A stretch of 64,000 nucleotides of DNA from Escherichia coli O127:H6 str. E2348/69 (GTDB taxonomy: Bacteria > Pseudomonadota > Gammaproteobacteria > Enterobacterales > Enterobacteriaceae): NCBI RefSeq assembly GCF_000026545.1, contig NC_011601.1. One strand, written 5' to 3'. Within the stretch, counting starts at the first letter, position 1. The number at the start of each line of letters is the position of its first letter. Shown here piece by piece: positions 9,001-12,000 of this stretch. Position numbers: made by a program.

Positions 9001-12000
9001 CTACGTGATATCCCTAGCCCGTCTATCACAGACGTCCCCGTTGGGGTGAAATTCTTCGGCATGAAGGCACCACATCAGGGGGCTCCGATTGTCATCGACC
9101 AACCGAGCAGCTTCCTGGCTATCTCCGATCTGGTGGTTCGCGTTCTTGATGGCAAGATTTTCACCGAAGACAATGTTGACTGGAAAAAACTCACCAGTGG
9201 GTTACCACAAACAGCACCGGTCTCTGAGAACTCAAATGCAGTAGTTATTCAATACCAGGATAAACCGTACGTTCGCCTGAACGGCGGCGACTGGGTGCCT
9301 TACCCGCAGTAAGAACGAATAAATATCCTCCGGCATAGCCGGAGGTTTTTCAAATGCGCCTATAAGACTCTCTTACCTGCCGCGCCCTAACAGGCGCACA
9401 CGATCTGACATTTGCATCCAACTTCGTTACTTACGGCCCGTAAACGGGCTGCCCGGATAGGGAATCGATAACTGCTCTCCCATTTTATCCTCTTCAAGCT
9501 GGTGCTTTATGTAATCCTGTATCTTCGCCGTGTTCTTACCCACCGTATCGACGTAATACCCTCTGCACCAGAACTCCCTGTTCCTGTACTTGAATTTCAA
9601 ATCACCAAACTGCTCGTAAAGCATCAGACTGCTTTTCCCTTTCAGATATCCCATAAAGCCGGATACGCTCATTTTGGGCGGGATCTCCACAAGCATATGG
9701 ATATGATCTGCACAGCATTCAGCTTCCAGAATCCGTACACTTTTCCACTCACACAGCTTTCTCAAAATACAGCCTATTGCTCTACGCTTCTCTCTGTAGA
9801 ACACCTGTCTTCGGTATTTTGGCGCAAATACTATGTGATATTTACAGTTCCATCGGGTGTGCGCTAAGCTCTTTTCGTTCCCCATTGGGACCCCCTTTTG
9901 ATTTCTTGTTTGACACTTGCAGTTGCCAGACCGCAAGGTGTTTTAACAAATCAAAAGGGGTTTTAATAACTGGCTCAAAGCTGAAAGCTTTCCGGACCCC
10001 CCAGCCTAGCTGGGGGTTTTCTGTGCACAAAAAGGCCGCAGAGTTTCCCCCTGCGGCCTGATCCGGGCGCAAATTGCCATTACGGCAGCCTGACGCCCGC
10101 ATGACACGTTACTTCCGCTTATTCAGCCAGTTCACGATCATACTGGCAAGAATGCCAGCAATGACCGGAGCCGCTAAATCATGCCAGAAGGCCATGCCCA
10201 GTTCTGCGAGCGTCATATAGCCGCCTGTGTTGTAATGACAACGTTTCGCGGCTATTCTTGAGTGGTCTAGGTTCAAGATTAGCCCCCGTGATGTTGTCAG
10301 GTGCATACCTGCAACGTGCGGGGGTTTTCTCTCTCCAGCAACCAATGCCACCAGGGATTAAGCCCCCGCAACATTGCGCCTCACCGGAACCTTTCCGGCT
10401 TGCCGCTGATTCTACGACTGTTTTTCTGCTCCGGAATCCATCACTTCTTCACTCTGTGCTGCGCATTCCGCAGAATATTATCCGCTTGCAACCGTTGCAT
10501 TTTTCTTACGAAAAAGGCCGCAGAGTTTCACCTCTGCGGCCTGGTCCGGGCGCAAATTGCCATTACGGCAGCCTGGCGCCCGCATGACACGTTACTTCCG
10601 CTTGTTCAGCCAGTTCACGATCATACTGGCAAGAATGCCAGCAATGACCGGAACCGCTAAATCATGCCAGAAGGCCATGCCCAGCTCTGCGAGCGTCATA
10701 TAGCCGCCTGTGTTGTAATGACAACGTTTCGCGGCTATTCTTGAATGGTCTAGATGCAAGAATGGCCCCCGTGATGTTGTCAGGTGCATACCTGCAACGT
10801 GCGGGGGTTTTCTCTCTCCAGCAACCAATGCCACCAGGGATAAAGCCCCCGCAACATTGCGCCTCACCGGAACCCTTCCGGCTTGCCGCTGATTTTACGA
10901 TTGCTTTTTGCCGTCAGCACCCGGCAATCTTCCTCATTGCGTGATGCCTTCCAGCTTAATTTCTTTATTTGCAATAGTTGCAGCTCATATCCGGGCTGAC
11001 TCCAGACTAGTAGTGAAATGCGCAATTTTGTAGAATTGCGCCTCCTCGCGACCTCCCCAGTGAATCTGTTGCCTCATTTTTTACATACTGCGTATTCGAC
11101 TTCTCCACCTGTTGCGCAAGAGAAACTGGGTTTATTCATTTTTGCGAGGCCGACTTCTTTCTGGACAGGACTTTATGCAGCACAACACACTACCGAAACA
11201 CGATCAGAAATTGCCGTTTACACGCTACGACTTCGGCTGGGTTTTATTATGCATAGGCATGGCGATTGGTGCCGGAACCGTGCTGATGCCAGTACAAATT
11301 GGATTGAAGGGAATTTGGGTATTTATTACCGCAGCGATCATTGCTTATCCTGCCACCTGGGTAGTACAGGACATTTATTTAAAAACCCTTTCTGAAAGCG
11401 ATTCCTGTAATGACTACACCGATATTATCAGTCATTACCTGGGGAAGAACTGGGGAATTTTCCTCGGGGTTATCTACTTTTTGATGATTATCCACGGGAT
11501 TTTTATCTACTCTCTCTCCGTGGTTTTCGACAGCGCCTCGTACCTGAAAACCTTCGGTTTAACCGATGCCGATCTTTCTCAATCTCTATTTTATAAAGTC
11601 GCCATTTTCGCCGTACTGGTGGCGATTGCGTCTGGTGGTGAACGATTACTGTTTAAGATTTCCGGGCCAATGGTGGTGGTCAAAGTGGGGATTATTGTCG
11701 TGTTCGGTTTTGCGATGATCCCGCACTGGAATTTCGCCAATATAACCGCCTTCCCGCAAGCCTCCGACTTTTTCCGCGATGTCCTGCTTACTATTCCATT
11801 TTGCTTCTTTTCCGCAGTATTTATTCAGGTACTTAACCCAATGAATATTGCCTATCGTAAACGGGAAGCGGATAAAGTACTGGCAACCCGGCTCGCGCTG
11901 CGTACCCACCGGATTAGCTATATCACGCTCATTGCGGTGATCTTGTTTTTTGCCTTTTCGTTTACCTTCTCAATTAGCCACGAAGAAGCCGTTTCTGCCT

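Follow-up and report, generated by a model that had tools for sequence, protein, structure and literature searches.

The spacer between bcsG and the ldr locus of Escherichia coli O127:H6 str. E2348/69 carries a transposase gene, which raises the question of what the inserted element is, exactly where it ends and which of its neighbours it affects. We examined the locus within a 64,000-nucleotide stretch of contig NC_011601.1 (the window). A sequence-only reading had placed an IS200-family element at 9352..10026, between a genuine bcsG terminator and ldr, with possible polarity on ldr/rdl. It had also taken the K-12 spacer to hold no IS, and alignment bore this out: the ldrD terminator hairpin comes immediately after bcsG in K-12, and the bcsG-ldrD spacer is free of any IS.

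Extent and ends of the element

When the filled site was aligned with the empty K-12 site, the insert was found to be exactly 711 bp, which moved both ends outwards from the earlier positions to 9318..10028 (Table 1). The registers 9319-10029 and 9320-10030 fitted the alignment as well, because an AA dinucleotide is shared. Comparison of the filled and empty sites revealed no target duplication longer than 2 nt, and the shared AA/TT represents either this register ambiguity or a 2-bp duplication. Formally, the insert may be a 709-bp element with a TT duplication instead of a 711-bp element without one, and sequence alone cannot choose between them because the flanking TT is invariant across sites. 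The same 711 bp were found in the copy of CFT073, in five more copies that occupy the bcs-ldr locus, in six further chromosomal and two plasmid copies of E. coli, and in three copies from other genera, the one exception (Mangrovibacter) being 710 bp. The termini were common to all of these IS200C copies, and full-length 1-711 matches were present in many E. coli genomes.

Table 1 Features of the IS200C element and its flanks (positions in the window)
Feature	Position	Strand	Basis
Complete IS200C element, 711 bp	9318..10028	-	Empty-site alignment versus K-12
Left-end terminal 12 nt, GTGCACAGAAAA	10017..10028	-	Sequence
GAAAA, presumed left guide, just 5' of left hairpin foot	10017-10021	-	Sequence; analogy
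Left-end hairpin, CCCCCAGC-TAG-GCTGGGGG	9998..10016	-	Terminator scan and ssDNA fold
Rfam STnc490, left-end RNA region of IS200	9895..10018	-	142 bits
5'UTR stem-loop region	9892..9960	-	RNA fold -40.4 kcal/mol, z -3.2; inverted repeat I3
Region mapped from published description	9877..9966	+	Placed solely from the published description (PMC4513863), transferred to this copy
tnpA, intact 152-aa Y1 HUH transposase	9427..9885	-	ORF and profile matches; RefSeq WP_000526113.1
GAAAAA, presumed right guide, just 5' of right hairpin foot on top strand	9346..9351	-	Sequence
Right-end hairpin, CCTCCGGC-TAT-GCCGGAGG	9327..9345	-	Terminator scan and ssDNA fold
Right-end tail ATATTTATT, T-rich pentamer TTATT last	9318..9326	-	Conservation
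Target, outside the IS: ldrD intrinsic terminator, hairpin 10033-10059 and T-run 10029-10033	10029..10059	-	Terminator scan, fold, empty-site alignment
Flank: bcsG stop codon 9310-9312 and 5-nt spacer before IS right end	9310..9317	+	Sequence, empty-site alignment
rdlD, about 240 bp from the IS and transcribed away	10265-10330	+	Rfam match

The transposed (top) strand corresponds to the minus strand of the window, with IS nt 1 at position 10028. The element lacks terminal inverted repeats, as GTGCAC... and ...TTTATT are not mutual inverted repeats. Instead, we found two different subterminal 8-bp hairpins, each with GAAAA(A) just before it. The left-end hairpin, presumed to be the one that TnpA binds, is the GC hairpin that had been noticed upstream of the transposase gene, and it was recovered by both terminator scan and folding; it matches the published IS200 left-end terminator (nt 12-34; PMC4513863). 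The guide role of GAAAA is proposed by analogy with the AAAG/TTAC rule of IS608 (PMC5027513). Wherever the right end of a copy was recovered, the tail was conserved and the base after it varied, and its final TTATT is the presumed right cleavage site; the cleavage positions at both ends are putative, being read from the sequence.

All copies in which the right end was examined have the right-end hairpin, whereas the empty site of K-12 lacks it. On the + strand, 9346..9351 reads TTTTTC and forms the T-tail of a site that resembles a terminator and faces bcsG, CCTCCGGCATAGCCGGAGG TTTTTCAAAT (terminator scan). This hairpin and its TTTTT, previously taken for the terminator of bcsG itself, therefore lie inside the insert. 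An Rfam Ysr202 match at 9310-9350 was rejected (26.6 bits, where the gathering score is 315), and it spans little beyond the same hairpin.

Transposase, regulatory RNA anatomy and relatives

The element carries a complete 152-aa Y1 HuH transposase, as the sequence-only reading had held. TnpA matched Pfam Y1_Tnp (E=1.7e-37) and the NCBIfam equivalog transpos_IS200 (146 bits; cut-off 55), and its homologues of solved structure include the TnpA proteins of IS608 (2a6m, 1e-18) and ISDra2 (2xm3, 4e-16). The HUH motif is HIH at residues 61-63 and the catalytic tyrosine is Y125, the catalytic residue of IS200 TnpA (PMC4513863). The gene spans IS nt 144-602 and is the only one; tnpB is absent and no other ORF had family support. 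RefSeq names it 'IS200C family transposase' (WP_000526113.1, in the E2348/69 record, which was 100% identical over the 1,051 bases compared), and the protein is one residue apart from the common TnpA variant WP_000526135.1 (C39 here, S39 in the variant). A mechanical 121-aa ORF runs antisense to tnpA at 9502..9867 (+). The ends could be defined from the empty-site alignment and TnpA similarity was evident from the profile matches; judged by its sequence, the element is a member of the IS200 group of the IS200/IS605 family. We are highly confident that it is a complete, apparently autonomous IS200C at 9318..10028 with its top strand on the minus strand. It is an ordinary and already known copy, annotated as IS200C in RefSeq.

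Set against the published description (PMC4513863), the sequence contains the anatomy specific to IS200, namely the left-end terminator, an SD-sequestering 5'UTR stem-loop and the art200/STnc490 region. The segment 9892..9960 corresponds to the SD-hiding stem-loop at IS200 nt 69-138 (PMC4513863), and the STnc490 match was full-length (model 1-124 of 124; E=2.6e-30; 142 bits, where the gathering score is 56). The promoter scan detected no sigma-70-like promoter in 9150-10950 and gave no position for a tnpA or art200 promoter, consistent with the weak tnpA promoter that has been reported. By analogy with Salmonella IS200, the left-end terminator, the SD-hiding stem-loop and the antisense RNA art200 would hold transposase at a very low level. 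IS200 has been described as essentially dormant (PMC5435999, 10.1101/2024.06.26.600842).

The IS200C copies of E. coli (CFT073, LF82 and the E2348/69 annotation) share the 711 bp, the termini and the single tnpA. The copy between deoD and yjjJ in CFT073 is 6 nt apart. Location is otherwise the one difference of the window copy from this group, and its TnpA has C39 where the common variant has S39. IS200 of Salmonella enterica, the reference that has been studied by experiment, has the same layout (terminator nt 12-34, stem-loop nt 69-138, Y125 and art200/STnc490; PMC4513863) and is set apart by its published length (707 bp versus 711 bp here). IS1541A of Yersinia pestis is 86.8% identical over the whole element, with the same hairpins and GAAAA motifs, and on plasmid pFra its left end also adjoins a hairpin followed by TTTTT; it differs in its left terminus (GTGCCC versus GTGCAC), in its length of 710 bp and in a much higher copy number in its host, exceeding 50 in many Y. 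pestis strains (PMC5435999). IS608 of Helicobacter pylori and ISDra2 have a homologous Y1 HUH TnpA, subterminal hairpins and a guide 5' of each hairpin foot, and insert 3' of a short motif without duplication and with a bias for the lagging-strand template (PMC5027513). However, they carry tnpB and use TTAC and TTGAT as targets, whereas the target here is a T-rich pentamer, which in practice is an intrinsic terminator's tail, and just 12 nt separate the left cleavage site from the hairpin. RAYT (TnpA-REP) proteins have a related Y1 HUH fold, and both groups are tied to extragenic GC-rich hairpins; RAYT/REP membership was ruled out, with 31 bits against the REP_Tyr_transpos cut-off of 80, flanks that consist of a terminator and the bcsG stop codon, and IS ends that are not REPs.

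Neighbouring genes and occupation of the locus

The left end directly adjoins the T-run of the ldrD terminator, which is intact, and the only change to that terminator is in the bases past the fifth T of its tail. It had been stated that tnpA and ldr lie on the same strand with ldr downstream; they do share a strand, but it is the minus strand, and in the direction of transcription ldrD lies upstream of the IS. Polarity on ldr/rdl is not supported, because the IS is downstream of ldrD and its intact terminator. We conclude that ldrD, its terminator and rdlD are untouched and that polar effects on ldr/rdl are unlikely; read-through, if any, goes from ldrD into the IS, where it meets the left-end terminator. 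The original picture of an IS at 9352..10026 between a genuine bcsG terminator and ldr drew on a real IS on the strand of ldr and on a hairpin that resembles a + strand terminator right after bcsG. It is nevertheless very improbable, since that hairpin is absent from the empty site and belongs to IS200C copies at unrelated loci, ldrD runs towards the IS and stops first at its own terminator, and rdlD points in the opposite direction. The gene with an altered 3' end is bcsG. According to the consensus scan, the IS right-end hairpin and TTTTT, 15 nt past the stop codon, probably serve as its terminator, and bcsG would end there instead of running into the ldrD hairpin. In the ldr region itself, the repeat search found a 483-bp ldr/rdl duplication and Tandem Repeats Finder reported no tandem repeats in 9900-11200. 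Sok-like Rfam matches over the ldr leaders were dismissed (26-29 bits versus 59).

Comparison across strains placed the IS at the bcsG-ldr locus in 26 of 5,426 complete genomes. Of the 5,426, 2,332 had no IS200C match, and the others had it at 1 to 35 places each. Several flank haplotypes carried an IS at the ldr terminator motif, and at least two different repeat units were affected; strain SW070910 has it behind a different ldr unit, an arrangement that needs a separate insertion. Such repeated occupation makes the site a weak lineage marker, so the earlier remark that IS200 copies mark lineages is weakened at this locus. The window copy showed 6 differences from the CFT073 deoD-yjjJ copy and 7-12 from the copies that other lineages carry at this locus. 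For the 200-nt ldr-side flank, a 1-nt indel in the terminator loop voids the ungapped counts for the window, and these were ignored.

On grounds of parsimony we favour gain at this site over precise loss elsewhere. Excision of IS200/IS605 elements is seamless (PMC5027513) and would leave a scarless empty site, and between lineages the IS at the locus has diverged (7-12 nt in 711) to an extent comparable with the bcsG flank (20-25 nt in 1,200), two points that would fit an ancestral filled site that most E. coli have since lost. We regard such a history as improbable, given the few genomes that carry the IS here, the insertion of its own that SW070910 requires, and the closer relationship of the window copy to the CFT073 deoD copy than to same-locus copies elsewhere. 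A different question is whether the host retains the copy chiefly for regulatory RNAs, a 5'tnpA sRNA and art200 as reported for Salmonella, and not as a mobile element. The full-length, high-scoring STnc490 match and the intact 5'UTR stem-loop are in keeping with this, and invF is one of many genes under the control of 5'tnpA in Salmonella (PMC5435999; 10.1101/2024.06.26.600842). However, tnpA and both ends are fully intact too, copy number and location vary by strain, and no target is known in E. coli; we consider a role of this kind unlikely.

Position behind intrinsic terminators

We collected 36 distinct IS200C/IS1541A sites from E. coli, nine other genera and plasmids. The contig scan used the left-end pattern of this copy, which biases the sample to close IS200C relatives, and many of its loci are contig ends without a right end. 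The left end followed a T-rich pentamer (TTTTT, TTATT, TTGTT and similar) at 36/36 sites, and nearly all had a strong GC-rich hairpin just before it. Among the 28 flanks that were scored, 89% had a hairpin with a folding energy under the 5th percentile of the controls, compared with 4.3% of the control pentamers, which were the intergenic T-rich pentamers of the window (Mann-Whitney p=3e-18 for folding energy). The junction invariably coincided with the end of the T-tail, read on the sense strand of the gene upstream, and several insertions touched a convergent gene's stop codon or lay a few bases from it. The GC skew of the + strand was -0.035 across the window and negative in 7/8 bins, indicating that the lagging-strand template is the minus strand and hence the top strand of the IS; bias for that template is a family trait (PMC5027513), with which this single copy is consistent.

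By analogy with IS608 and ISDra2, TnpA would have cut out the top strand of a copy elsewhere, in the form of a single-stranded circle. The circle would then have been joined to the lagging-strand template, while this was single-stranded, 3' of the T-rich pentamer TTTTT, with the GAAAA guide beside the left-end hairpin reading this target by putative pairing.

The regular position behind terminators may reflect targeting or survival. It is possible, though doubtful, that insertions occur at any T-rich pentamer and that the neutral, shielded ones are kept. In the family model a target of 4-5 nt that the guide can read is sufficient (PMC5027513), sites near terminators are plausibly the least harmful, and a preprint reads upstream terminators as limiting transposase expression (10.1101/2025.07.22.666184). 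Survival accounts less readily for a hairpin that accompanies about 90% of real sites but so few of the window's intergenic T-rich pentamers, for a junction always at the T-tail end on the sense strand of the upstream gene, or for insertions at or near convergent stop codons, not obviously the most neutral spot. Tentatively, and as a rather unlikely proposal, we suggest that IS200C/IS1541-type elements home to intrinsic terminators, recognizing a hairpin and T-tail on the lagging-strand template and inserting at the end of the tail. The shape recognized would then resemble the right end of the element itself (hairpin and ATATTTATT). In the literature, the one statement of terminator homing that was found is an aggregate statistic in a preprint of 2025-26, and older IS200/IS1541 papers may already describe it.

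As a single annotated IS200C copy in a sequenced reference pathogen, with its neighbouring genes intact, the element carries very little weight of its own. For annotation, a hairpin beside an IS200-type gene should be assigned to the neighbour only after comparison with the empty site, and occupancy of the bcsG-ldr spacer by IS200C, which can recur independently, is a poor stand-alone lineage marker. Homing to terminators, if true, would explain the harmlessness and longevity of these elements, the repeated use of the same ldr terminator and the routine gift of a replacement terminator (right-end hairpin and TTTTT) to the convergent gene. If the position does reflect true targeting, it would provide a simple rule to predict IS200/IS1541 insertion sites and would help to explain how a near-silent element persists across Enterobacterales.

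Identity and exact ends of the element

The window between 9200 and 10250 was 100% identical to E. coli O127:H6 E2348/69 (NZ_LT827011.1), in which RefSeq labels the gene lying between bcsG and ldrD as "IS200/IS605-like element IS200C family transposase" (WP_000526113.1). The tnpA product matched Pfam Y1_Tnp (E=1.7e-37) and the NCBIfam equivalog transpos_IS200 (146 bits, cut-off 55), and was homologous to the solved TnpA structures of IS608 (2a6m, 1e-18) and ISDra2 (2xm3, 4e-16). Its HUH motif is HIH at residues 61-63, and Tyr125, the residue mutated for catalytically dead IS200 TnpA (PMC4513863), is present. 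The proposal of an IS200-family element with a Y1 transposase, made in the sequence-only reading, was thus borne out far beyond chance, the similarity to IS200/IS605 TnpA on which it hung being clear.

The same reading had placed no IS in the K-12 spacer, and the MG1655 gene order is indeed bcsG - ldrD - rdlD - yhjV without an IS. Spacer alignment showed that the empty K-12 site reads ...GCAGTAAGAACG|AAAAAGGCCGCAGAG... and that the window adds 711 bases at the bar (9318..10028). The ends could therefore be defined, apart from the register: a shared AA permits 9319-10029 or 9320-10030, and formally the element could also be 709 bp long with a TT duplication. The base following the right-end TTATT differs among copies and the two bases preceding GTGCAC are TT in every copy, so the register is not settled by sequence alone; we chose it by family convention, which keeps the target motif out of the left end and counts the terminal motif as part of the right end. 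The same length and termini were found in five other copies at the bcsG-ldr locus, the CFT073 deoD copy, six further E. coli chromosomal copies, two E. coli plasmid copies and three copies from other genera, except that the Mangrovibacter copy is 710 bp long. The limits first proposed, 9352..10026, missed 34 bp at one end, and the hairpin then taken for the bcsG terminator (CCTCCGGC-ATA-GCCGGAGG followed by TTTTT, 9327-9350) belongs to the IS as its right-end hairpin.

Anatomy and neighbouring genes

Features of the element and its neighbours (IS nt 1 = window 10028; top strand = minus)
Feature	Position	Strand	Basis or remark
Left terminal sequence GTGCACAGAAAA	IS nt 1-12	minus	
Left-end hairpin CCCCCAGC/GCTGGGGG	10016..9998	minus	terminator scan and fold
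Long 5'UTR stem-loop burying Shine-Dalgarno AAGGGGGT	9960..9892	minus	RNA fold and inverted repeat I3
tnpA ORF	9427..9885 (IS nt 144 to 602)	minus	152 aa counted from ATG
GAAAAA, right-end hairpin CCTCCGGC/GCCGGAGG, then ATATTTATT	9345..9327 (hairpin)	minus	terminator scan and fold
bcsG stop codon	9310-9312	+	
ldrD terminator, intact	stem 10033-10059, T-run 10029-10033	minus	terminator scan
ldrD	10109-10216	minus	transcribed toward IS
rdlD	10265-10330	+	directed away from IS
Second ldr gene	10592-10699	minus	
Second rdlD match	10748-10813	+	

The left-end hairpin corresponds to the published bidirectional left-end terminator of IS200 (nt 12-34), and the 5'UTR stem-loop (-40.4 kcal/mol, z -3.2) to IS200 nt 69-138 (PMC4513863). 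By analogy with Salmonella (PMC4513863, PMC5435999), the left-end terminator and the stem-loop, together with art200, would presumably keep tnpA expression low; we would place art200 at about 9877-9966 (+). Rfam STnc490 gave a full-length match at 9895-10018 (142 bits), the model reading the tnpA-sense strand here and including the left-end terminator. STnc490/art200 is described in the literature as antisense to the tnpA 5'UTR (PMC4513863), and the Rfam family may therefore differ from the characterised sRNA in strand or extent. A weak partial match to Rfam Ysr202, a Yersinia sRNA, was also seen over the right-end hairpin (9310-9350; 26.6 bits, gathering score 315); perhaps this family overlaps an IS1541 end.

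The IS starts at the base directly after the ldrD terminator T-run. It had been suggested, from the shared strand, that the IS could exert polar effects on ldr/rdl. This strand logic was wrong, as the IS is not upstream of ldr, and the effects are not supported because ldrD ends at its own intact terminator before the IS and rdlD points away from it. If anything, transcripts reading through from ldrD would run into the IS left-end terminator. The gene with an altered 3' end is bcsG: in K-12 it leads straight to the ldrD hairpin, without a T-tail in the bcsG direction, whereas in the window the terminator scan found a canonical terminator-like site on the + strand, the right-end hairpin and TTTTT, which is predicted to terminate bcsG.

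At 10029-10995 the window has two tandem copies of the ldr/rdl type I toxin-antitoxin unit (483-bp period, 96% identity); the bcsG-yhjV locus holds one unit in K-12 and one to four in other strains. Next after yhjV the window carries a HipA-family toxin gene (RefSeq annotation; 12463-13482, minus), where K-12 has dppF.

Insertion behind terminators

Left-end flanks of IS200C/IS1541A were gathered from four sources, giving 36 distinct sites that span more than 10 genera as well as plasmids: 26 loci of nine other genera, seven distinct E. coli chromosomal sites (the terminators of ldrD, deoD, htpX, carB, pqqU, plaP and aroG), two E. coli plasmid sites, and IS1541A on the Y. pestis plasmid pFra. 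All 36 flanks end in a T-rich pentamer, directly preceded at nearly all sites by a GC-rich hairpin, so that the IS left end abuts what looks like the T-tail of an intrinsic terminator. At IS sites the upstream 35 nt folded with a median energy of -17.7 kcal/mol, compared with a mean of -5.1 for T-rich pentamers in general; 89% of the 28 statistically analysed flanks fell below the 5th percentile of controls (p=3e-18), as did only 4.3% of the window's intergenic T-rich pentamers. At the E. coli sites the upstream gene is co-oriented with tnpA in every case, and the gene beyond the right end is mostly convergent and stops within a few bases of it. The convergent gene is then faced with a putative replacement terminator, formed by the right-end hairpin and TTTTT. 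In LF82 yebQ and E-1246 mcbR the IS lies right at the stop codon of the convergent gene: the annotated stop overlaps the first right-end IS bases (CDS ends at locus positions 402 and 401, respectively; IS start at 401), and the IS or the shared T/A register may have supplied some of the TAA.

A preprint describes an over-representation of terminator-like sequences immediately upstream of IS200/IS605 elements (10.1101/2025.07.22.666184). The position behind terminators may reflect either targeting or survival. In the family mechanism, established for IS608 and ISDra2 (PMC5027513), TnpA binds the subterminal hairpins of the top strand and excises that strand as a circle, which it pastes into single-stranded DNA, with a preference for the lagging-strand template. 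The insertion point lies 3' of a short motif, and this motif is read by a guide sequence located immediately 5' of the foot of the left-end hairpin. In the window GAAAA(A) precedes each of the two hairpins, the flank at the left end is TTTTT, and TTATT closes the right end, an arrangement that appears to fit the guide-target rule. The GC skew of the + strand is negative (-0.035), and therefore the minus strand, the IS top strand, is the lagging-strand template, as expected from the family model.

Re-use of the bcsG-ldr locus

Near-full-length IS200C occurs in 2,063 of 5,426 complete E. coli genomes, with up to eight matching places in E2348/69. Many E. coli plasmids, including those of the O157:H7 pO157 type (about 93 kb), carry only fragments, equivalent to window 9318-9458 (the right-end 141 nt, about 91% identity) or 9692-10028 (the left-end half); they appear to be remnants of old insertions, in some cases cut short by IS1.

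When the locus was compared across strains, the bcsG-to-ldr query was covered to 80% or more at one place in only 26 of the 5,426 genomes. The IS abuts an ldr terminator in all eight records inspected among these, on several flank haplotypes and with one to four ldr units. In strain SW070910 the order is bcsG-ldr-IS-ldr-yhjV and the left end abuts the second-unit terminator at the same nucleotide, which requires a separate insertion. The window copy differs from same-locus copies elsewhere by 7-12 nt and from the CFT073 deoD copy by 6 nt, and the second ldr unit of the window carries the same target motif, unoccupied (cttacg|aaaaaggccgcagag, 10505-10516, with the junction at 10510/10511). The window element is a known, already annotated IS200C copy of standard anatomy, located where such elements typically sit. 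These insertion data indicated that the bcsG-ldr site is a recurrent target, and the value of IS200 as a lineage marker, which the sequence-only reading had invoked, is therefore weakened there.
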